DNA of 64,000 nt, from NCBI GenBank assembly GCA_037386965.1, contig JARRLN010000004.1:197-64196 (forward strand), given 5' to 3'. The translations under genes and the position numbers were made by a program. This document shows positions 27,147-56,234 of the stretch, piece after piece (within the stretch, counting starts at the first letter, position 1; each line of letters opens with the position of its first letter). The notes beneath the pieces were generated by a model. The model had not been told where the DNA came from. It ran no database searches and worked only from the letters and a program-made list of their open reading frames with translations. This DNA comes from Nitrospirota bacterium (GTDB taxonomy: Bacteria > Nitrospirota > Thermodesulfovibrionia > Thermodesulfovibrionales > JdFR-86).

Positions 27147-27178
27147 CGGGGCGCTCCGCCCCCGGCCCCGGTTTTTTT
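27147..27178 (+). terminator. Intrinsic terminator (GC hairpin + T7)
   Basis: GGGGC-gctcc-GCCCC plus CCGGCCCCGG, followed by TTTTTTT at 27172-27178, about 160 nt after the ferredoxin stop. Confidence 0.55.
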
Positions 27179-45929: not shown

Positions 45930-46622
45930 TCACCCGGAGGGCGGGCCTTCCTCGCCCTCCTGTTTCTTGAAGGGGGCCATGTGCCGGATGATCCTGCCCT
46001 CTATCATGTAGATGACCATCTCGGCGATGTTGGTGGCGTGGTCGCCCATGCGTTCGAGGTACTTCGAGATGTAGGTGATTTTCGTGGCCCGGTAGACGGT
46101 GGTGGGGTCGCGGCTCATGATGGCCGAGAGCTCCTCCACCACGGCCTCGTTGAGGTCGTCCATCTCGTCGTCCCGGAGGATGACGTCCATGGCCAGGCGC
46201 TTGTCGTGGTTGACGAAGGCGTCTATGGCGTCCTTGACCATGCGGCGGGCGATGTTCGCCATGGTGGGGACGTCGACGTAGGGCTTCAGGATGGGCTCCT
46301 GGTTCAACTCCAGGGCGCGCTCCGCTATGTTGACGGCGTTGTCCCCGATGCGCTCCAGGTCCGTGGTTATCTTCATGGCCGTGGTGATGGTCCTGAGGTC
46401 CGAGGCCACGGGCTGGATGAGGGCCAGGAGGCGGATGCACTCCTCGTCTATGTGGACGTCCACGGCGTTTATCTCGTGGTCGCCCGCGATGACCTCGCGG
46501 GCCATGTCGTCGTCCCTTTCCACCAGGGAGTGGACGGACTTCTTGATGGCCGTCTCCACCATCGCCGCCATCCGGACGAGCATGTCGCTCAGCCACTTGA
46601 GCTCGTTGCCCCGCATCACCAT
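45930..46622 (-). CDS. phoU: Phosphate signaling complex protein PhoU
   Basis: C-terminal 230 aa of ORF 45930..47258. The ATG shares one nt with the pstB stop (TGATG). Two PhoU repeats (DLERIGDNAVNIAE, YLERMGDHATNIAE). Confidence 0.92.
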   Translation of the reverse strand: MVMRGNELKWLSDMLVRMAAMVETAIKKSVHSLVERDDDMAREVIAGDHEINAVDVHIDEECIRLLALIQPVASDLRTITTAMKITTDLERIGDNAVNIAERALELNQEPILKPYVDVPTMANIARRMVKDAIDAFVNHDKRLAMDVILRDDEMDDLNEAVVEELSAIMSRDPTTVYRATKITYISKYLERMGDHATNIAEMVIYMIEGRIIRHMAPFKKQEGEEGPPSG

Positions 46623-47452
46623 CAGCCGAATCTCCCCGTGATGTAATTCTCCGTGAGCTTCTCCCTCGGGTGGATGAAGAGCGCCTCCGTGTCGGTGTAC
46701 TCGATGAGCTCCCCCAGGTACATGAAGGCGGTGAAATCCGAGACCCGGGCCGCCTCCTGCATGTTGTGGGTGACGATGACGATGGTGTAATCCCGCTTGA
46801 GCTCCACCATGAGCTCCTCTATCTTTCCCGTGGCCAGGGGGTCCAGGGCCGAGCAGGGCTCGTCCATGAGGAGAATCTCGGGCTCCACGGCTATGGCCCG
46901 CGCGATGCACAGGCGCTGCTGCTGTCCGCCCGAGAGCCCCAGGGCGCTTGCCCCGAGCCGGTCCTTCACCTCGTCCCAGAGGGCGGCGTCCCGGAGGCTC
47001 CGCTCCACGAGCTCGTCCAGGTCCTCGCGCCCCCGGACGCCCGCTATCCGGGGGCCGTAGGCGACGTTTTCGTAGATGGACTTGGGAAAGGGGTTCGAGC
47101 GCTGAAAGACCATGCCCACCCTCTTTCTGAGCTCGGCCACGTCCACCGAGGGGTCGTAGATGTCCCTGCCGCCTATCGTCACGGTCCCCTCGATGCGCAC
47201 CCCGTCGACGAGGTCGTTCAGGCGGTTCAGGCAGCGAAGCAGGGTGGACTTCCCGCACCCGGAGGGACCGATGAAGGCCGTCACCCGGTTTGCGGCCATG
47301 TCCATGGAGATGTCCTTCAGGGTATGGCTCTCGCCGTAGTAGAGGTTCAGGTCCCTGACGGTGACGACGGGGTCCTGGATGACCTCCCCCTTCGGGGGGG
47401 CCGGCTCCGCCGAGACCCTTTTCCCTGTCCTCTCTTTGCTCTCTAAGGCCAC
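46622..47452 (-). CDS. pstB: Phosphate ABC transporter ATP-binding protein PstB
   Basis: [37 protein letters not shown] 47452 follows GAGGAGG. The ORF-track TTG at 47464 is the upper bound for the start. Confidence 0.92.
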
Positions 47453-47492
47453 GTGCCTCCTCAAAAGAAAACGCGCCGGGCGCCCCCTCCCA

Positions 47493-49139
47493 TCAGAACG
47501 CCGACGCGGTGTACTTCTTCCTGAGCCTGTTGCGTATGGCGATTGCCGCGAGGTTCAGCACCACCACAATAAATAATAACAAAAATGTGGTGCTGTACAC
47601 CATGGGCATGGCCGCCTCCACGTTGGGGGACTGAAAGCCCACGTCATAGATGTGAAACCCCAGGTGCATGAACTTCCGCTGGAGGTGCACGAAGGGGAAC
47701 GTGTTGTCCACCGGAAGGGCGGGGGCGAGCTTCACCACGCCGGTAATCATGAGCGGGGCCACCTCGCCGGTTGCCCGGGCGATGGCCAGGACCATGCCCG
47801 TCAGGATGCCGGGGGCCGCGCTGGGGAGAACCACCTTCCAGATGGTCTCGAACTTGGTGGCCCCCAGGGCCAGGGAGCCGTGCCTGAGCTCCTGTCCCAC
47901 GGCGGCCAGCCCCTCCTCGGTGGAGACGATGACCACAGGCAGTGTGAGGAGGGCCAGGGTGAGGGAGGCCCAGAGGATGCCCCCCGTGCCGAAGGTGGGC
48001 GTGGGCAGCGAGTCGGCGAAAAACAGGCGGTCGATGGTCCCGCCCACCCCGTAGATGAAAAACCCCAGGCCGAACACCCCGAAGACGATGGAGGGCACCC
48101 CCGCCAGGTTGTTCACGCAGATGCGGACCACCCGCACCACCGCGCCCTGCCTGGCGTACTCCCGGAGGTACAGGGCGGCCAGCACCCCCAGGGGCATCAC
48201 GGCAACGGTCATCAGAAGCACCAGCATCACCGTCCCGAATATGGCGGGGAAGACGCCCCCCTCGGTGTTGGACTCCCGGGGGTCGGCCGAAAGGAACTCC
48301 CAGAGCCTGGCGGCGTAAAGGCCGAGCTTCCCGCCCACGCCCATGGTGTTGGGCTTGTACGCCCGGACCACGTCGCCGAGGGGAAGCTCCTTCGTGCGCC
48401 CGTCGATGCTCTCGAGGACCACGGTGTGCTTCTTGAGCGTCCGGTAAAGCTCATCCAGGCGTCCTTCAAGCTCCCCGTAGCGGCGCTGAAGCTCCTGCAT
48501 CCGCCCCTCCAGGGGGGCCAGGGCCTCCCGGCCGCCTTCGGCTCCGCCCGACCGCGCCTTGCGCATCCGGAGCTTGAGCCTCTTCATCCGATGGTTGATG
48601 TCCCCTATCCGGTCCTTCTCTATGTGGCGAATCCGCTCGCGGAGCTTCCGGGCCTCGGGCAGAAGGGAAAGGAAAAGCCGGTACGATTCCCTCTCGCCTC
48701 TTGCCAGGACGACGTCGCCCATCCGCACCTCCCGGACGAACCCGAAAAAGTCTCCCCATTCCTGCCTCTGCAGGACCACGGCCTCGGGAGGACGGCTCCG
48801 GGAGACGATGTCGGCCTCTTTGACCCAGGTGAAGTCCAGCCCGTAGAGGTCCCTGTTGGCGATTTTCAACTGCACCCTGTACCCCTCCGATACGTCCTCT
48901 CCCTCACCAAACGCCGGTATTTTTTCCCTGTCGGTCACCATGCCCAGGAGCTGGCGGCCGTCGGTGAGGGTGAGGGCCACCAGGTCGGACGTCCAGAAAG
49001 AGCCCAGGGCCTTGGAGGCGATGAGGTAGAGGAGCCCGCCCACCATCATGAGGCTCACCACCAGGGTGCCGCCCGTCAGCCAGACGAAGGGAGAGCCGCT
49101 GGCCCAGTAGTTTTTCAGCCGCCGCCTATAGCTTCCCAT
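47493..49139 (-). CDS. pstA: Phosphate ABC transporter permease PstA, long form (548 aa)
   Basis: The C-terminal region of about 280 aa is a typical PstA core ([29 protein letters not shown]). The N-terminal region of about 260 aa is an extra domain between TM1 and the core. Confidence 0.9.
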
Positions 49140-51435
49140 ACTTTTCCCTCAGCCTGGTGCGGACGACCTCGGCCACCGTGTTGACGATAAACGTGAGCGC
49201 GAAGAGAAGGAGCGCGGCCAGGAAAAGCACCCTGTAGAGGGTGGCTCCATGGGGGGCCTCGGGTATCTCCACGGCGATGTTGGCCGAGAGGGCCCGGAAA
49301 CCGTTGAAGATGTTCCAATCCATGATGGGAGTGTTTCCCGTGGCCATGAGGACTATCATGGTCTCTCCCACGCCCCGCCCCAGGCCGATCATCATGGCCG
49401 AGAAGATTCCGGCGCTCGCCGTGGGGAGCACCACGCGCACCGCCGTCTGCCACCTGGTGGCCCCCAGGGCCAGGGAGCCCGAGATGAGGTGCCGGGGCAC
49501 GTTGGAGAGGGCATCCTCGGAAATGGTGAAGATGATGGGGATGATGGCAAACCCCATGACAAACCCCACCACCAGGGAGTTTCTCTGGTCGAAGCCCAGC
49601 CCGAGGGAATTATAGAGCCAGGCGCGGAAGTCCCCGCCGAGGAAGAAGCTCTCCACGGGCCCGTTGAGCTTGAGGCAGATATAGACCCCTAGGGCGTAGA
49701 CCGGCACGAGAAGGAGCACTTCCGTCCCCTCCCTGAACCACTTTCTCACCCCCTGGGGGAGGCGGTTCCAGAGAAAGAGGGAGACGAGGGTGAGCACCGC
49801 AAGCACGGGGGGGATGAGGAAGACCGCCGGGACCTTGTCCTCGATGTAGGGGGCGAGCCACAGGCCCCCCAGGAAACCGAGCACCACGCTCGGAAGCGCG
49901 GCCATAATCTCCACCACGGGCTTGACGTAGCTCCTCACCACCGGGTGCATGAACTGCGAGGCGCTGAGCGCCCCCATGATGGCCATCGGGATGGCGAAGA
50001 CCAGGGCGTAGAGGGTCCCCTTGAACGTGCCGAACACGATGGGGGTGAGGCTCAACTTGGGCTCGAAGTCGTCCCCGTACCCGGTGGACTGCCAGACGTA
50101 TGCGGGCTTGTTGTACCCCTCGTACCAGACCTTCCCGAAAAGCGTCTTGAGGGTGACCTCGGGGTACTTGTTCTGGATGTCCCAGTCGTAGAGTTTTCCC
50201 CGGTTATCCAGGGCCACGGCCCCGTCGCCCTTGGGCGCGAAGGCCATCAGGCGTATGGGGGCCTCGCCCCGGAGGGTGAGGAGCTTCCGCTCGGTGGTGG
50301 CGTGCTGAAGATATATCGTCCCCCTCTGGTCGGCGCTCAGGAAGCTCCGGTTCCGGACGCTTGCGGCGAACCGGCGCACGGGCGCCCCGTGGCGGGCCAT
50401 CCGGTGGGCGCGCACCAGGCCCCTGCCGGTGGGCGAGTCCGGCTGCTCCACCTGAAACCAGACCGAGACGTTGCCCTCCTCGTCCCCCACGAGCAGGGAG
50501 CGCTCCCCCACCAGAAACCCCAGGGAGGAAACGGCCGCCCCGCCCTCTCCGGCGTCATGGACGGCAACAAGCACGGGCTCCTGCCCGGGGGAAAGGCTCC
50601 AATGAAAGAGCTTTCCGTCCGCGGTGCCCGCATAGAGGTTCTCCAGATACGTATCCAGGGCCACCGAGACCGGAACGCTCCCGCCGAGGTCCCCGGTGAG
50701 GTCGAACCTTCTCCGGCTCACCTCGCCCTCGCCGAAAAGGGTCTGCTCCACCTCCTCGGAGACCAGGAGAAGCTCTCCGGTCTCCGTGAGGGCGGCCACC
50801 GCCCGGGACCCTCCGTCGGGGAGGGCCTTGTAGGTGGCCGCCTTGAGGGGAAGGTTCGTGACGCTCATCAAATCGCCCTCCCTCACGTGGGGGATGAGGG
50901 TGCGCTCGAGCTCCTCGCCGAAGCGGACGTCGAACTCCACCCATACGGGCAGGACGTGGCCGTCCGCCGTTGCCAGGGTGTAGAAGGAACTGTCCGGGGA
51001 GCCCCTGGCCGCGGTCACCCGCCTGCCCTGGAGGGCCTCGAGGGTCACCTCCTTGAGCGCCTGTCCCGTGTCGATGGAGAAAAACCGGACCACCCCGTCC
51101 CGGGTGATAACATAGGCCACCTCCCGCAGCTCCTCCACCCCCAGGGCCACCGGGGCGGCCTCCGGGGCGGGCCCGCCCGGGGCGGCGGAGGCCAGGAGGC
51201 CTTCGCCCGAGAGGGGATAGGAGGCCCTCAGCGAAGACCGGGCTCCCCGGGCGAGGGGAAAGGTTTCGGCGGAGATGAAATACAGGATGGCCAGGATGCT
51301 GGCGATGATGACAACACCGCCCACGGTGATGACCACCCGGGCAGTGCCGTCAAACAACCTCCGCCGGCGGAGGGCCGACCGGGTGAAGCCCCTGTTCAGG
51401 CGCCCGTTCTTTCCCTCCGGCGACAGAAGCTCCAT
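49126..51435 (-). CDS. pstC: Phosphate ABC transporter permease PstC, long form (769 aa)
   Basis: C-terminal permease core (SLALGATRWQTAVRVVLP). N-terminal TM helix followed by an extracytoplasmic region of about 400 aa with repeated ...G.L..W... beta-propeller-like units. Confidence 0.9.
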   Translation of the reverse strand: MELLSPEGKNGRLNRGFTRSALRRRRLFDGTARVVITVGGVVIIASILAILYFISAETFPLARGARSSLRASYPLSGEGLLASAAPGGPAPEAAPVALGVEELREVAYVITRDGVVRFFSIDTGQALKEVTLEALQGRRVTAARGSPDSSFYTLATADGHVLPVWVEFDVRFGEELERTLIPHVREGDLMSVTNLPLKAATYKALPDGGSRAVAALTETGELLLVSEEVEQTLFGEGEVSRRRFDLTGDLGGSVPVSVALDTYLENLYAGTADGKLFHWSLSPGQEPVLVAVHDAGEGGAAVSSLGFLVGERSLLVGDEEGNVSVWFQVEQPDSPTGRGLVRAHRMARHGAPVRRFAASVRNRSFLSADQRGTIYLQHATTERKLLTLRGEAPIRLMAFAPKGDGAVALDNRGKLYDWDIQNKYPEVTLKTLFGKVWYEGYNKPAYVWQSTGYGDDFEPKLSLTPIVFGTFKGTLYALVFAIPMAIMGALSASQFMHPVVRSYVKPVVEIMAALPSVVLGFLGGLWLAPYIEDKVPAVFLIPPVLAVLTLVSLFLWNRLPQGVRKWFREGTEVLLLVPVYALGVYICLKLNGPVESFFLGGDFRAWLYNSLGLGFDQRNSLVVGFVMGFAIIPIIFTISEDALSNVPRHLISGSLALGATRWQTAVRVVLPTASAGIFSAMMIGLGRGVGETMIVLMATGNTPIMDWNIFNGFRALSANIAVEIPEAPHGATLYRVLFLAALLLFALTFIVNTVAEVVRTRLREKYGKL

Positions 51436-51441
51436 AAGACC

Positions 51442-52407
51442 CTAGAGGACCTTCTTCCGCATCTTCTTGACGACGCTTGCCGGAAGGGGCTGATACCCGG
51501 ACTTGACGACAAGCTGCTGGCCCTCCCGGGAAAGGATGAACGAGACAAACTCCCGCACCAGAGGGTCCAGGGGCCGGTTGGGCGGACGGTTGATGTAGAC
51601 GTAGAGGAACCTCCCCAGGGGGTACCGCCCGCTCAGAAGGTTCTCGGCCGAGGGCTCCATGAAGCTGGTGCTCCCCTTCTTGGCCAGGGGGACCGTCCGC
51701 ACGCCGGAGGTAATGTAGCCGATGCCGCTGTAGCCGATGCCGTAGCGGTCCTCGGTCACGCCCTGCACGACGCTGGCCGAGCCGGGCTGCTCCTTCACCT
51801 CGTCCCTGTAGTCGCCCTTGCACAGGGCGTGCTCCTTGAAGAAGGCGTACGTGCCAGACGCGGAGTTCCTCCCGTAGAGGCTTATAGGGTGGTTCTTCCA
51901 GTCCCCGGTGAGGCCGAGGTCTCCCCAGGTCTCGACCCTCTTGCGGGCCCCGCACTTGCGGGTCTTGGAGAAGATGGCGTCCAGCTGCTCGATGGTGAGG
52001 CCCTTGACGGGGTTGTCCTTGTTGACGTAGACGGCCAGGGCGTCCAGGGACGTGGCCACCTGGGTGGGCTTGTAGCCGAATTTTTTCTGGAAGGCGTCCA
52101 CCTCGGAGCTCTTCATCTGCCGGGACATGGGCCCGATCTGGGCCGTCGCCTCGATAAGGGCGGGCGGTGCGGTGCTGGAGCCCTTCCCCTCTATCTGGCA
52201 CCGCACGCTGGGGTAGAACCTGGCAAACCCCTCGCACCAGAGGGCCATCAGGTTGTTCATGGTGTCGGAGCCCACGGCGTTGAGGCTCCCGGAGACCCCG
52301 CTTACCTTCTGGTAGGCGGGTATCGCGGTGTCCACATTCCCGGCATAAGCACCGGCCGAAAAGACGGCCAGCACCAAAGCCACGGCCAAAAACATGTGCT
52401 TCTTCAT
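51442..52407 (-). CDS. pstS: Phosphate-binding protein PstS
   Basis: Signal peptide; GSDTM, SASGTY-like, and GIGYSGIGY motifs. SD AGGAGG lies 8 nt upstream. Confidence 0.92.
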   Translation of the reverse strand: MKKHMFLAVALVLAVFSAGAYAGNVDTAIPAYQKVSGVSGSLNAVGSDTMNNLMALWCEGFARFYPSVRCQIEGKGSSTAPPALIEATAQIGPMSRQMKSSEVDAFQKKFGYKPTQVATSLDALAVYVNKDNPVKGLTIEQLDAIFSKTRKCGARKRVETWGDLGLTGDWKNHPISLYGRNSASGTYAFFKEHALCKGDYRDEVKEQPGSASVVQGVTEDRYGIGYSGIGYITSGVRTVPLAKKGSTSFMEPSAENLLSGRYPLGRFLYVYINRPPNRPLDPLVREFVSFILSREGQQLVVKSGYQPLPASVVKKMRKKVL

Positions 52408-52428
52408 TCAGAAAACCTCCTGCTTCGA

Positions 52429-52484
52429 ATTTTAAGCCTCGATTGTTACAGAAACGTTACAAACCCGTGATGATTCCGTTACGA
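52429..52484 (-). promoter_or_regulatory. Pho-box module 3 (proximal pstS promoter)
   Basis: On the minus strand: TCGTAAC-ggaa-TCATCAC-gggt-TTGTAAC-gttt-CTGTAAC at exact 11-bp phase, then 10 nt, then TAAAAT at 52434..52429. Confidence 0.7.
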
Positions 52485-52516
52485 GGGGCAACCCCCAACC
52501 GCTGCTCGTGCTTCCC

Positions 52517-52572
52517 ATTATAAGCTTCCGGTGTTACAGGACTGTGACAGCCTCATGAAGGTTCCGTGAACC
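52517..52572 (-). promoter_or_regulatory. Pho-box module 2 (embedded in the 3' end of the 71-aa ORF)
   Basis: On the minus strand: GGTTCAC-ggaa-CCTTCAT-gagg-CTGTCAC-agtc-CTGTAAC, then 10 nt, then TATAAT at 52522..52517. Confidence 0.7.
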
Positions 52573-52749
52573 CTCCACAGCCGTCGAAGCCCGGCCCTGC
52601 CCCTCGGCGTTCCTGCAAACAGGGCACTTGGCCGGGCTTTGCAGGCAGACCATGCGCTCGTAGGACGGCACGACGGGGAGGCCCCGCCCGCAGCCGTCCC
52701 TCTTTCCCTCGAAGTAAGGACACGTCGGGCTTTCTCTTTCGATGTTCAT
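52534..52749 (-). CDS. Cys-rich small ORF (71 aa), predicted leaderless and Pho-controlled
   Basis: ORF track entry MNIERESPTCPYFEGKRDGCG...MVCLQSPAKCPVCRN. The ATG lies 6 nt after a -10-like TACTCT that follows four Pho half-sites. No SD. Coding status is uncertain. Confidence 0.45.
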   Translation of the reverse strand: MNIERESPTCPYFEGKRDGCGRGLPVVPSYERMVCLQSPAKCPVCRNAEGQGRASTAVEGSRNLHEAVTVL

Positions 52750-52755
52750 GAAGAC

Positions 52756-52811
52756 AGAGTACCGGACGGATGTGACGGGATTATGACGGGGTGGTGAAAA
52801 TTCGGTGAAAG
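52756..52811 (-). promoter_or_regulatory. Pho-box module 1 (distal)
   Basis: On the minus strand: CTTTCAC-cgaa-TTTTCAC-cacc-CCGTCAT-aatc-CCGTCAC, then 10 nt, then TACTCT at 52761..52756. Starts directly after the phoR stop codon. Confidence 0.7.
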
Positions 52812-54566
52812 CTACGCCGTGGCGTCTTCGGCCCTGAGAAGGACGGTCACGGTGGTGCCGTGGCCCACCTGGCTTCGGAAGGCCATCTCCCAGCCGTGGG
52901 CCTTCACCAGGTGCTTGACGATGGCCAGCCCCAGGCCCGTGCCCCCGAGCTTCCGGGAGCGGGAGGGGTCCACGCGGTAGAAGCGCTCCCCCAGGCGGCG
53001 TATGTGCTGGGGGGCGACGCCGATGCCGGTGTCCTCTACGGCGATAAAGGGGCGTCCGTCCCCGGCCAGGCCGGCCCTGACGGTGACCCCTCCCCGGTCG
53101 GTGAACTTTATGGCGTTGTCCACCAGGTTCGTCAGTATCTGGATGAGCCGGTCCCGGTCGGCCCGCACCTGCCGGGCCCCCTCCGCGACGGACTGCGCGA
53201 GCGAAAGCCCCTTGTCCTTTGCCCGCCCGGCCAGGTTCTCCAGGACGTGCTCCAGAACGTCGCCGAGGTCCACGGGGCGCTTCTGCACCTTGATGACGCC
53301 CAGCTCTATCTTCGATATGGTCATGAGGTCGTCCACCAGGGTGTTGATGCGTTCGCTGTTGGAGGAGATGATGCCCAGGAACTTCCGGGCGTTCTCCTCG
53401 TCCTCCAGGGCCCCCATGAGGAGGGTGTCGGCAAAGCCCTTGATGGAGGCGATGGGGGTCTTCAGCTCGTGCGAGAGGTTTGCGACGAAGTCCTTCCTGA
53501 CCTGCTCGAGCTTCTTTATCTGGGTGATGTCGTGGAAGATGGCCACCAGGCCCGGGGGCTCCTCCTCATCGTAGAGCAGGGGGGAGACCTTGACGGTCAC
53601 GTACTTTTCCTCCGGGTAATCCAGCGTGAACTCCAGGTCCTCGGTGGCCCTGCTCCGGCGCACGCGGTCCAGCATGGCGAAGAACTCGGGGCTCCGCACG
53701 ACCTCCGCAAGGGGCCTTTGCGCCACGGGAGAGACGCCGAAGAAGTTCCGGGAGGCCGCCGAGGACATGACGATGTCGTCCTCGGGGCTCACGATGAGGA
53801 GGGCGTCGGGGATGCTCCGGAGGATGACGTTCAGCCGCTCGTACTCCTCCTTGCCCTGGGCAATGGTCTCCCGGAGGCGTCCGGCCATGGTGTTGAGGTT
53901 CTCGGCTATCTCGCCGAAGTCGCCGCCCTCTTTCAGCGTGAGCCGCCGCTCCAGGTTCCCCCGGGCGAGGGCCCGGGTAAACCGGGTTACGTCCCTCACC
54001 AGGCGCTGCAGCCGCCCGGTCTGCACGATGGAGACCCCCCCGGTCACGAGGAACACCAGGGCGAAGGCGATGAGGAGTTTCATCCTGAGCCTGTTGACCG
54101 ACGCGTTTACCTCCCGAAGCGGCACGGAGAGGCGGATGAAGCCGAGGGTCCGGCCGGCTTCTTCCACGCGGAGGGCCGAGAAAAGGGCCTCTTGCCCGTC
54201 CACAGAGGTGCGCACCGCATACCCCGAGCCCGCAAACAGGGCCTCCTTCAGCTCGGGGTCCGTAAGCACCTTCCGCCCGCGGACCCCCCGGTCCGAATCG
54301 GCCAGGATGGTGCCGTCCGGGGCGATGATGCTCAGCCGGGCGCCGGTCTTCTCATGCACCATCCGGACCAGCCGCTCCCGGTCGGCCTCCGGCCCGAAGG
54401 GCTCCAGGCTCGCCGCCAGGGAGGCGTGCATCCGGAGGGTCTGGGCCAGCTCCTCTATGCGGGTTTCCCTGACCACATGCGTGACGTAGACCAGGGCGAC
54501 CAGGAGGCCCAGGACGAGGACCAGCGCATAGACGTTGAAAATCCTGCTGAAGACCCCCTTCCTCAC
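52812..54566 (-). CDS. phoR: Phosphate regulon sensor histidine kinase PhoR
   Basis: Two TM helices, HAMP, PAS, H-box FVANLSHELKTP, and HATPase (DNAIKF, DTGIGV, GGTGLGLAIVK). Adjacent to phoB and pst. Confidence 0.9.
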   Translation of the reverse strand: MRKGVFSRIFNVYALVLVLGLLVALVYVTHVVRETRIEELAQTLRMHASLAASLEPFGPEADRERLVRMVHEKTGARLSIIAPDGTILADSDRGVRGRKVLTDPELKEALFAGSGYAVRTSVDGQEALFSALRVEEAGRTLGFIRLSVPLREVNASVNRLRMKLLIAFALVFLVTGGVSIVQTGRLQRLVRDVTRFTRALARGNLERRLTLKEGGDFGEIAENLNTMAGRLRETIAQGKEEYERLNVILRSIPDALLIVSPEDDIVMSSAASRNFFGVSPVAQRPLAEVVRSPEFFAMLDRVRRSRATEDLEFTLDYPEEKYVTVKVSPLLYDEEEPPGLVAIFHDITQIKKLEQVRKDFVANLSHELKTPIASIKGFADTLLMGALEDEENARKFLGIISSNSERINTLVDDLMTISKIELGVIKVQKRPVDLGDVLEHVLENLAGRAKDKGLSLAQSVAEGARQVRADRDRLIQILTNLVDNAIKFTDRGGVTVRAGLAGDGRPFIAVEDTGIGVAPQHIRRLGERFYRVDPSRSRKLGGTGLGLAIVKHLVKAHGWEMAFRSQVGHGTTVTVLLRAEDATA

Positions 54567-55267
54567 GGGCCCGCCTCGAAGTAATACCCGATTCCCCTCC
54601 GGGTCTTTACGTACCGGGGGTCCGAGGGGTCGTCCTCGATATGGGCCCGGAGACGCCGCACATGGACGTCCACGGTGCGGGGCTCCACGTAGCCCTCGTC
54701 CTTCCAGACGGCGTCCAGGAGCTGCTGGCGGGTGAAGACCCTGCCGGGGCGCTCGGCCATGTACGAAAGAAGACGGAACTCCGTGGCGCTCAGGTCCACG
54801 GGCTTTCCCTTCTTGGTCACCCGGTAGGTCTCCCTGTTGATGGTGAGGTCTCCGGCCACCAGGGTCGCCTCCCCGCCGGGGACCTTCTCGCCCGCGCGCC
54901 TCAGGACCGCCTTCACCCGGGCCACCAGCTCCCGGGGGCTGAAGGGCTTGGTCACGTAGTCGTCGGCCCCGAGCTCCAGGCCCAGGACACGGTCGACCTC
55001 CTCGGTGCGGGCCGTCAGCATGATGACCGGCAGGGAGCGGGTGGCCTCGCCGCCCCGGAGGATGCGGCAGAGCTCCGTGCCCTGGATGCCCGGGAGCATG
55101 ATGTCCAGGACCACCAGGTCGTATCCGCCGGCCCTGAGCATCCGGAGGGCGTCCTCGCCGTTTGAGGCCGAAGAGACCTCGAAGCCCTCCTTCCGGAGGT
55201 TATAGGCGATGAGCTCCACCAGGTCGGGCTCGTCGTCCACGACCAGTATCTTGGCCTTTGGAGACAC
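54563..55267 (-). CDS. phoB: Phosphate regulon response regulator PhoB (OmpR family)
   Basis: C-terminal 234 aa of ORF 54563..55690. GTG 55267 (VSPKAKILVVDDEPD). REC domain plus a winged helix (LSATEFRLL, TVDVHVRRLR). The start codon is uncertain. Confidence 0.88.
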   Translation of the reverse strand: MSPKAKILVVDDEPDLVELIAYNLRKEGFEVSSASNGEDALRMLRAGGYDLVVLDIMLPGIQGTELCRILRGGEATRSLPVIMLTARTEEVDRVLGLELGADDYVTKPFSPRELVARVKAVLRRAGEKVPGGEATLVAGDLTINRETYRVTKKGKPVDLSATEFRLLSYMAERPGRVFTRQQLLDAVWKDEGYVEPRTVDVHVRRLRAHIEDDPSDPRYVKTRRGIGYYFEAGP

Positions 55268-55298
55268 GTTGTTCTTATAACACTTTTCTCCGGGGGAT

Positions 55299-56234
55299 TC
55301 AATCCGGACGGGCCAGGGCGTCCAGGCGCTCCAGGGCCTCGCGCATGTCCGCGGGCACCGGGGCCGAGAACTCCACGCGCCCGCCGGTCGCCGGATGCCT
55401 GAAGCCCAGGAGCGCGGCATGGAGCATCTGCCGGGGGAAGAAGACCCTTTCCCCCCTGATGTCCAGGGACGTCTTCCGCCCGTAGACGCGGTCCCCCAGA
55501 ACGGGATGGCCCACCGAGGCGAAATGCACCCGTATCTGGTGCGTCCTGCCCGTGGCCAGGCGGACCTCCAGGAGCGTGGCGAACCCGTAAGAGCGGAGGG
55601 CCCGCCAGGCAGTGCGCGCCTCCCTCCTCTGGCGGGACCGGGTGGACATCTTCTTCCGGTCCTTCTCGGAGCGCCCGATAGGCATGTCAATCTCTCCCTC
55701 CTCGCCCATGTCGCCGAGGACCAGGGCCCTGTAGCTCCGCGTGGTCTCCCGGCTCCGGAACTGCTCCACCAAGTCGTAATACGCCCGGCTGCTCCTGGCC
55801 ACGACCATGACCCCGGAGGTATCCCTGTCCAGGCGGTGCACCACCCCGGGCCTGAGCGGCCCTCCCACAGGGGCCAGGCCGCCCACGCGATAAAGGAGGG
55901 CGTTCATGAGCGTTCCGGTGGGATGGCCCGCGGCGGGGTAGACCACGAGCCCCGGGGGCTTGTTGACGACCACCACGTCGTCGTCGGCAAAGAGGATTTC
56001 CACCGGGATGTCCTCGGGAACAAGCTCTTCCGGCGGGGGCGCGGGCACCGAGACCTCGATGCGGTCGCCCTCGCGGACCCTGTAGCTTGCCCGCACGGGC
56101 CGCCCGCCCACCAGAACGCCGCCCTCCTCGATGAGGTGCTTGATGCGGGAGCGGGTCAGCCCGTCCTTGCGCTCGGAAAGAAACCGGTCGATGCGCTCCC
56201 CCTCCTCTCCGGGGGCGACGACGAGGCGGGCCAC
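55299..56234 (-). CDS. rluD: RluA-family 23S rRNA pseudouridine synthase RluD
   Basis: S4 domain followed by HRLDRDTSGVMVVA and GRTHQIRVH motifs. Confidence 0.92.
   Translation of the reverse strand: MARLVVAPGEEGERIDRFLSERKDGLTRSRIKHLIEEGGVLVGGRPVRASYRVREGDRIEVSVPAPPPEELVPEDIPVEILFADDDVVVVNKPPGLVVYPAAGHPTGTLMNALLYRVGGLAPVGGPLRPGVVHRLDRDTSGVMVVARSSRAYYDLVEQFRSRETTRSYRALVLGDMGEEGEIDMPIGRSEKDRKKMSTRSRQRREARTAWRALRSYGFATLLEVRLATGRTHQIRVHFASVGHPVLGDRVYGRKTSLDIRGERVFFPRQMLHAALLGFRHPATGGRVEFSAPVPADMREALERLDALARPD

Follow-up and report, generated by a model that had tools for sequence, protein, structure and literature searches.

The stretch of DNA analysed here, referred to below as the window, comprises 64,000 nucleotides of contig JARRLN010000004.1 from a Nitrospirota bacterium (65% G+C), and the element under study is the 404-nt spacer between a phoR-type histidine kinase gene and pstS, both of which are encoded on the minus strand. 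On that strand the genes are arranged in the order rapZ, an rluD-like gene, phoB, phoR, a short open reading frame (ORF), pstS, pstC, pstA, pstB and phoU. The spacer probably contains three PhoB-type promoters (P1, P2 and P3), the first of them driving a genuine, conserved microprotein gene, as judged from the sequence features listed here.

52772..52811, minus strand: module 1, half-sites CTTTCAC (52811-52805), TTTTCAC (52800-52794), CCGTCAT (52789-52783) and CCGTCAC (52778-52772)
52756..52761, minus strand: candidate P1 -10 hexamer TACTCT, separated by 10 nt from the last half-site and by 6 nt from the ATG at 52749
52534..52749, minus strand: predicted 71-aa microprotein gene, called from its sole in-frame start and its family membership
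52618..52722, minus strand: conserved core of the microprotein, residues 10-44, with eight invariant residues (alignments A1 and A2)
52533..52572, minus strand: module 2, half-sites GGTTCAC, CCTTCAT, CTGTCAC and CTGTAAC, of the putative distal pstS promoter P2
52517..52522, minus strand: candidate P2 -10 hexamer TATAAT, 10 nt past module 2
52445..52484, minus strand: module 3, half-sites TCGTAAC, TCATCAC, TTGTAAC and CTGTAAC, of the putative proximal pstS promoter P3
52429..52434, minus strand: candidate P3 -10 hexamer TAAAAT, 10 nt past module 3
52416..52421, minus strand: pstS Shine-Dalgarno sequence AGGAGG, read directly, ahead of the pstS ATG at 52407
52417..52567, no strand assigned: tandem duplication with copies at 52417-52479 and 52505-52567, found by repeat search (63 nt, 88-nt pitch, 71% identity)

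Each module consists of four 7-mers at an 11-nt pitch, followed by exactly 10 nt and then by a TAnnnT hexamer. An earlier note on this DNA, made from the letters alone, had reported the three modules, and its strings, coordinates and geometry were all reproduced on the minus strand. Module 1 begins at the first base 3' of the phoR stop codon (TAG, 52814-52812), and module 2 covers the last 12 codons of the ORF together with its stop codon. The sole sigma-70-type -35/-10 pair returned by a consensus scan (TTCACC, 18 nt, CATAAT; 52809-52780) lies inside module 1 and shares none of the three TAnnnT hexamers.

The significance of the arrays was assessed with a 7-mer matrix built from 40 half-sites of other organisms only, to avoid circularity, and with a tetrad score defined as the matrix sum over four positions 11 bp apart, on both strands of the window. 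The three best tetrads in the 64 kb were modules 3, 2 and 1 (31.4, 24.5 and 24.1 bits, respectively), and their starts (52484, 52572 and 52811) coincide exactly with the reported starts of the modules. The best tetrad outside the spacer scored 3.2 bits, and the maxima from 30 dinucleotide-preserving shuffles had a mean of 4.3, a standard deviation of 3.4 and a largest value of 18.3. The pattern TGTMAY-N5-TGTMAY occurs twice in the 64 kb, both times in the phoR-pstS spacer, against an expectation of 0.01, and the probability of finding TAnnnT at the fixed offset, estimated from base composition alone, is about 0.005 per module. A scan with the relatives' matrix found no further Pho-box tetrads in the window, including upstream of phoB; in the region directly before that gene (55267-55300) there is neither a tetrad nor a convincing dyad, and the rluD-like and rapZ genes are packed against phoB. 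The only other near-threshold dyad in the window, CCGTAATAACAATGCAAC at 27149 on the minus strand, scored 14.4 bits and is within shuffle noise.

Similar arrays were found at the pstS genes of relatives, which were drawn from Dadabacteria, Thermodesulfobacteriota, Geobacter-like bacteria and other metagenome-assembled genomes (loci designated L001 onward). Arrays at 11-bp pitch lie just before pstS in loci L001-L028, those of four repeats matching module 3 in position, and the relatives' pstS arrays as a set have between two and four repeats (TTAAC, TTCAC or GTAAC) at the same pitch. Dozens of relatives show this phasing ahead of pstS together with the spacing of 10 nt to TAnnnT. When a position weight matrix was built from the window's 12 half-sites, as the earlier note had proposed, this reciprocal scan of the relatives found arrays upstream of both pstS and homologues of the ORF, those before the ORF homologues being above threshold at L065 (3424), L080 (4951), L076 (4950) and L078 (4915). 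Nearly all of the relatives' modules that were read are followed by 10 nt and TAnnnT. The independent matrix, the relatives' pstS arrays and the reciprocal scan all agree with the earlier reading of the arrays as Pho boxes, and three marks of a Pho-box promoter (repeat units, a -35 position 10 nt from the -10 hexamer and orthologous placement before Pho genes) are present.

In B. subtilis the PhoP repeats are of the TTAACA type. In PHO-box promoters the boxes lie 10 bp from the -10 element. A PHO box is composed of direct-repeat units of 7 conserved and 4 less conserved nucleotides to which PhoB binds head-to-tail, the core in E. coli being CTGTCAT (PMC4415409). The modules of the window resemble the PHO-box promoters of PhoB and PhoP (E. 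coli pstS and ugpB; B. subtilis PhoP) in their 7+4-nt repeats at 11-bp pitch (PMC4415409), and likewise in having several repeats at the place of the -35 element and 10 nt from the -10 hexamer, before pstS and beside phoBR. Their half-site consensus is [CT]TGTAAC or TTTCAC, as opposed to the CTGTCAT of E. coli. In kind the promoters are ordinary PHO boxes; what is unusual, and unlike the known PHO-box promoters, is the stacking of three within 404 nt and the placement of one directly against a start codon.

Modules 2 and 3 are the products of an old, diverged tandem duplication that also includes a degenerate copy of the pstS Shine-Dalgarno sequence (GAAGCACGAG versus GAAGCAGGAG). Identity between their half-sites is 19/28, no higher than the 71% of the whole repeat, which favours a reading in which module 3 alone works as the pstS promoter and module 2 is a functionless leftover of the 88-bp duplication. 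This reading is rather doubtful, given that module 2 still scores 24.5 bits after approximately 29% divergence, that its substitutions fall within the allowed A/C and C/T degeneracy, and that it keeps both the exact 10-nt spacing and a perfect TATAAT. Two Pho-box modules in tandem before pstS, most of them followed by 10 nt and a TAnnnT hexamer, were also found in three relatives, L065 (3770/3927), L074 (6999/7100) and L078 (6918/7132), and the full layout of an ORF promoter followed by distal and proximal pstS promoters recurs in L065. The distal pstS module of L065 is a duplicate of the ORF promoter, not of the proximal pstS promoter, and therefore the module duplications of the window and of L065 were independent. 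In L076 (5205-5235) the stop codon TAA of the microprotein gene forms part of a half-site, TTGTAAC, in the Pho box of pstS, an overlap of coding sequence and operator that parallels module 2 in the window. Two tandem promoters for pstS, P2 and P3, are accordingly retained as the preferred reading of modules 2 and 3.

The ORF (52534-52749, minus strand) encodes 71 amino acids with cysteines at positions 10, 20, 35, 42 and 45. Its ATG at 52749 is the only in-frame ATG, GTG or TTG across 272 upstream codons, and is the only possible start that would include C10 and C20. The same frame is open for those 272 codons (52537-53565, minus strand), across phoR in another frame. A word-indexed protein search with the ORF returned only the ORF itself. 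At L065, the nearest relative by PstS (75% identity), the order is phoB-phoR-ORF-pstS, and a 73-codon gene that begins 60 nt after phoR has a product sharing C-x-Y-x-F...C-G-x-G-L-P-V...S-Y...C...S-P-x-K-C-P-V with the protein of the window. An exhaustive phmmer search of 1.84 billion representatives yielded seven small homologues (E values of 9e-6 to 7.5e-4), and a profile search extended these to 17 clusters among 5.8 billion proteins, a rare family whose members are all 50-76 aa long and all unnamed or annotated as hypothetical.

In window numbering, residues C10, C20, P25, C35, P39, K41, C42 and P43 are invariant in alignments A1 and A2, and Y30 is nearly so. The family can be described by the motif C-x(9,11)-C-x2-G-[LM]-P-x9-C-x3-P-x-K-C-P in a protein of 50-76 aa, which the window protein fits, and in a six-frame search that protein scored 72.6 bits (E of 9e-21) against the family hidden Markov model (HMM). 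Two features emphasized in the earlier note, a CPVC motif and the length of 71 aa, did not hold for the family as a whole: C45 is lineage-specific, the conserved motif being K-C-P-[VL], and only approximately 37 core residues are kept. Each invariant residue other than methionine is encoded by two or three synonymous codons across the seven loci at which the microprotein gene was read (46-66% G+C), where codons compared in pairs differ by 0.37, 0.39 and 0.62 at the first, second and third positions, respectively. The ratio of nonsynonymous to synonymous substitution rates (dN/dS) was 0.24 between L065 and L080, the only pair for which synonymous divergence was not saturated. Within the core of the window gene, G+C is 0.84 at codon position 3 versus 0.58 at positions 1 and 2. 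The ORF is most likely a real gene under purifying selection at the protein level, to judge by its codons, and the earlier expectation that a real gene would be conserved and uninterrupted in relatives was borne out by the 17-cluster family, the eight invariant residues and the dN/dS of 0.24.

These data bear on the proposal that the spacer is purely regulatory, consisting of a Pho-regulated leader or small RNA (sRNA) plus stacked PhoB sites, with the 71-codon frame accidental and untranslated. DNA of 65% G+C yields many spurious ORFs, and three others of 52-61 aa overlap this one on both strands as typical high-GC shadow frames; the frame itself is open far upstream, the RNA fold z-score is -1.86, and the first word-based search found no homologue. 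The homologues with eight invariant residues, found in genomes of 46-62% G+C, the synonymous variation at those residues, the excess of third-position changes and the dN/dS argue in the opposite direction, and make this proposal very improbable. The fold z-score is itself unexceptional, being equalled or bettered by 4 of 100 shuffles, and Rfam searches gave nothing relevant at E <= 1 over 51000-54000 and nothing at the gathering score in L065, L076 and L080. An RNA element was accordingly rejected as the main explanation, and the alternative raised in the earlier note, a pure leader or sRNA of about 340 nt, is not favoured over a protein-coding gene.

The distribution of the family is sparse. 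Searches by tblastn and by HMM over six-frame translations of 83 sequences uncovered no additional copies hidden ahead of pstS, and in the six-frame HMM search more than 60 other pstS loci proved to lack the microprotein. With PstS as query, scans of genomes and metagenomes returned no relative closer than 69%, and the protein database contained PstS relatives at 73-77%, of which L068, L069, L070 and L073 have neither the phoR-pstS arrangement nor the ORF. Pfam searches with the ORF gave no family at E <= 1 except for two chance-level matches, and searches of NCBIfam and of the PDB with the family, by sequence and by profile, gave no match. The family appears to be undescribed in Pfam, NCBIfam, the PDB and the literature searched, which contained no description of a Cys-rich microprotein heading pst or phoA operons; this agrees with the statement in the earlier note that no Pho-controlled Cys-rich microprotein ahead of pstS was known. 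Word-based homology searches and gene callers miss such genes, and the family surfaced only by exhaustive HMM search.

Gene context was read at six other loci (L065, L080, L076, L074, L078 and L081). In the window and in five of these six, the microprotein gene is the first cistron of a Pho operon and follows a Pho-box array. The order in L065 and L080 is phoB-phoR-ORF-pstS; in L076 it is phoB-phoR-ORF-pstSCAB-phoU, with a PHO4/PhoU_div pair nearby; and in L074 and L078 it is ORF-alkaline phosphatase-pstSCAB, with PhoX also upstream in L074. The carriers have two types of pst operon, one with a long PstC of approximately 770 aa (the window and L065) versus one with a PstC of 311-313 aa elsewhere, and therefore the link is to the Pho regulon and not to one pst lineage. 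In both L065 and L080, phoB is preceded by a divergent gene for a BlaR-like Peptidase_M56, and PhoR is short (413 aa), with a PAS domain and no HAMP domain; the pst operon types of the two loci differ. A distant subfamily of 50-57 aa (P0127, P0128, P0137 and P0138) has CPL instead of CPV. In the one locus read from this subfamily, that of P0127 (L081, 800-952; L082), an interval of 9 nt separates the gene from a 69-aa HTH_8 gene downstream, and the gene adjoins a divergent P-II gene, with a GAF-sigma-54 activator nearby, and this subfamily may be a counterpart in nitrogen regulation.

The geometry at the start codon was compared across the same loci. In the window, TACTCT ends 6 nt before the ATG at 52749 and no GGAG-type motif is present in the 25 nt upstream of it. 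Relatives have TAAAAT with 5 nt (L065), TAATAT with 5 nt (L080) and TAAACT with 6 nt (L076) before the ATG, and none of these four lineages has a Shine-Dalgarno sequence there. In L074 and L078 the unit of box, 10 nt and hexamer lies 41-42 nt upstream of the ATG, leaving a leader of approximately 35 nt, and a G-rich Shine-Dalgarno-like run precedes the ATG. Leader and Shine-Dalgarno sequence thus occur in a complementary pattern, as expected if the position of the promoter sets the mode of translation. The start codon is ATG at all seven microprotein loci read. Leaderless genes have been characterized in silico by a -10 signal approximately 10 nt upstream of the start (PMC3160421), and the window gene resembles leaderless bacterial genes in having TAnnnT 5-6 nt before the ATG and no Shine-Dalgarno sequence (PMC3160421). 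It is unlike typical leaderless genes in being, by prediction, activator-dependent, its -35 element being replaced by Pho boxes, and in that the signature is conserved for one gene across lineages, with other family members using Shine-Dalgarno leaders.

It is reasonably likely, on this pattern of sequence, that the microprotein would be translated from a leaderless mRNA. A real, Pho-controlled ORF might instead be translated from a 5' leader produced by read-through from phoBR or by an upstream start, again with no Shine-Dalgarno sequence. The start sites (near 52749 for P1, 52510 for P2 and 52422 for P3) are predicted from hexamer spacing only; phoR ends 62 nt upstream of the ATG with no terminator-like site between them; TACTCT is poor as a -10 element; and L074 and L078 use leaders. 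Such a leader is nevertheless unlikely: four lineages with otherwise different spacers have all retained a hexamer that ends 5-6 nt upstream of the ATG, Shine-Dalgarno-like runs are missing exactly in those lineages and present exactly where a leader exists, the L065 group conserves its N-terminal extension MM.S..GKK starting at the first ATG, and ATG is used throughout the family loci. The leaderless prediction of the earlier note is supported, the hexamer-ATG geometry recurring in L065, L080 and L076, and that geometry is not universal in the family, since L074 and L078 have leaders. The interval from the ORF to pstS contains no terminator-like site in the window, in L065 or in L080, and for this reason transcripts from P1 probably run on into pstS.

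Close relatives of the window sequence raise the further question of whether the copy in this lineage is intact. The variant P0139, which falls in the 90%-identity cluster of the window ORF and is probably from a sister strain, carries P8R, C35Y and C45Y, three amino-acid changes in 71 codons, one of which removes a family-invariant cysteine, and its PstS is 100% identical to that of the window; another variant, P0140, carries P8S only. The family could then be real and the copy in the window lineage decaying or dispensable, its promoters mattering only for pstS, and the window protein, as the most divergent Pho-linked member and one with no F-x-W-K tail, would fit such a history. We regard this as distinctly improbable. 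In the window copy and those of three same-species contigs the frame is uninterrupted, none of the eight invariant residues is missing and G+C at codon position 3 is high; the 471 nt compared, ORF included, are identical across the three contigs; and module 1 has no plausible target besides the microprotein ORF.

The genes flanking the spacer were assigned as follows.

54563-55267, minus strand: putative phoB, best NCBIfam match TIGR02154
52812..54566, minus strand: phoR-type histidine kinase gene, from Pfam domains and NCBIfam best matches
51442..52407, minus strand: pstS, TIGR02136 above cut-off
49126-51435, minus strand: pstC, passes NCBIfam cut-off
47493-49139, minus strand: pstA, passes NCBIfam cut-off
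46622-47464, minus strand: pstB, passes NCBIfam cut-off
about 45930-46613, minus strand: phoU, PhoU domain

The kinase contains HAMP, PAS, HisKA and HATPase_c domains by Pfam, and its best NCBIfam matches are PnpS and phoR_proteo, both below their curated cut-offs. The best NCBIfam match of the response regulator is PhoB (TIGR02154), at 277.7 bits versus a cut-off of 296.2. The probable assignment of the pair as PhoB and PhoR is based on best match and on synteny with pstSCAB-phoU. The start codon of phoR is GTG, and the candidate phoB starts that were read are also GTG, the phoB start not being fixed. PstC of the window is 769 aa long, and its match to the PstC permease is confined to some 220 residues at the C-terminal end; the N-terminal portion of approximately 540 aa has weak WD40/beta-propeller matches only. 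PstA is also long (548 aa). Long PstC and PstA forms are found in the closest relatives L065, L069 and L070 as well (770, 788 and 762 aa), and the other microprotein-bearing loci have short PstC and PstA.

Structural models of the microprotein were obtained with AlphaFold2 from shallow family alignments (17 and 19 sequences). The window protein reached a predicted local distance difference test score (pLDDT) of 48.5, and the 53-aa member P0123 reached 65, its model showing a beta-hairpin that leads into two helices, and a core at 71-74. Foldseek searches of the PDB with these models found nothing below E = 3.8. The protein has no hydrophobic segment. Its invariant cysteines are singly spaced (C-x9/11-C-x14-C-x6-C-P), and the presence of four of them suggests a metal site or a redox function. 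PhnA/YjdM has an N-terminal zinc ribbon, and PhnA is encoded among phosphorus-scavenging genes. The microprotein is like small Cys4 zinc ribbons such as this one in having about 40 residues with four invariant cysteines and in being a likely metal binder; it is unlike them in its spacing of C-x9/11-C-x14-C-x6-C, which does not form two CxxC knuckles. A finger of the zinc-ribbon or CxxC-knuckle type was rejected, as the cysteines are isolated, CPVC is not conserved, and neither Pfam, NCBIfam, the PDB nor Foldseek gave a match.

Among small proteins tied to phosphate starvation, YtfK is PhoB-regulated and YoaI is PhoB-controlled. DUF1127 proteins such as YjiS dampen the expression of pst and bind to PhoR (PMC12501420), YoaI links signalling systems by mediating cross-talk (PMC11429745), and YtfK contributes to SpoT-dependent accumulation of (p)ppGpp (PMC8600398). 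The microprotein is like these three in being a small protein tied to phosphate-starvation signalling, and unlike them in having no sequence relationship to any, in being Cys-rich and soluble, and in being the first cistron inside a phoBR-pst cluster. Membership in DUF1127, YtfK (DUF1107) or YoaI was rejected in the absence of any Pfam match and, for YoaI, of a hydrophobic stretch that could form its transmembrane helix. A regulatory role by likeness to DUF1127, YoaI and YtfK is a conjecture from analogy. Any specific function for the microprotein is rather doubtful: the favoured guess is that this small protein modulates the PhoR/Pst/PhoU signalling complex, and the alternative guess is metal handling for phosphatases.

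From the computed sites, geometry, family, purifying selection and linkage to Pho genes, we infer that the spacer would act as three minus-strand promoters of the PhoB type, all dependent on an activator. Each would have, in lieu of a -35 element, a tandem pair of Pho boxes 10 nt from TAnnnT, and the four half-sites would give room for two head-to-tail PhoB dimers. Under limitation of inorganic phosphate, phosphorylated PhoB would bind the arrays and recruit RNA polymerase. Transcription from P1 would start at, or within one base of, the A of the ATG at 52749, and the leaderless mRNA would be translated into the 71-aa soluble microprotein, whose core of approximately 37 residues with four invariant cysteines would most probably bind a metal. 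Transcripts from P1 would probably continue into pstSCAB-phoU, for which P2 and P3, derived from the old 88-bp duplication, would serve as tandem pstS promoters. The most likely role of the microprotein would be that of an accessory factor specific to phosphate starvation. A broader version of this scheme is doubtful: that across Nitrospirota and the uncultured anaerobes neighbouring them a Cys4 metal-binding family belongs to the core of the phosphate-starvation regulon and is activated by PhoB, being expressed as leaderless mRNA from a promoter that fills the phoR-ORF spacer, and serving as a PhoR/PstSCAB/PhoU modulator or as a metal allocator for Zn-dependent phosphatases, with a sister subfamily in a P-II/sigma-54 nitrogen context.

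Several points weigh against the interpretation of the spacer as three PhoB-type promoters with P1 driving a conserved, leaderless microprotein gene. The P1 hexamer TACTCT is weak, and the half-sites of module 1 are of the TCAC/TCAT type, not TGTAAC; the PhoB and PhoR scores are just below the NCBIfam cut-offs; and the array before the ORF in L074 was under threshold in the reciprocal scan. At L076 an internal ATG after a Shine-Dalgarno-like GGAGG could be the start on a 33-nt leader. The window copy is divergent, its nearest relative having an E value of only 9e-6, and has CPYF instead of C[RK]Y[YF] as well as lacking the F-x-W-K tail, and the variant P0139 has lost C35 while its PstS is unchanged. 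The distant 50-aa member at L081 lacks Pho boxes and any linkage to Pho genes. The predicted structure is weak and matched no known fold, and metal binding is suggested by four invariant cysteines only, which are not in CxxC knuckles. The carriers are all uncultured, and PhoB binding, transcription and translation at these loci are predictions from DNA sequence.

Few bacterial stress circuits have been studied as well as Pho regulons, and small proteins that tune two-component systems (DUF1127 with PhoR, YoaI and MgrB) are a fast-growing topic. To these the present locus would add a conserved, unannotated microprotein family that in several uncultured lineages occupies the most prominent position of a Pho operon; its regulatory grammar is clear, and it yields the testable prediction that expression is leaderless and activator-dependent. 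If the protein does modulate PhoR/Pst signalling, or couples phosphate starvation to the use of metals, it would constitute a new layer of control; if it does not, the spacer would still be a clean example of stacked Pho-box promoters and an anchor for prediction of the Pho regulon of Nitrospirota.

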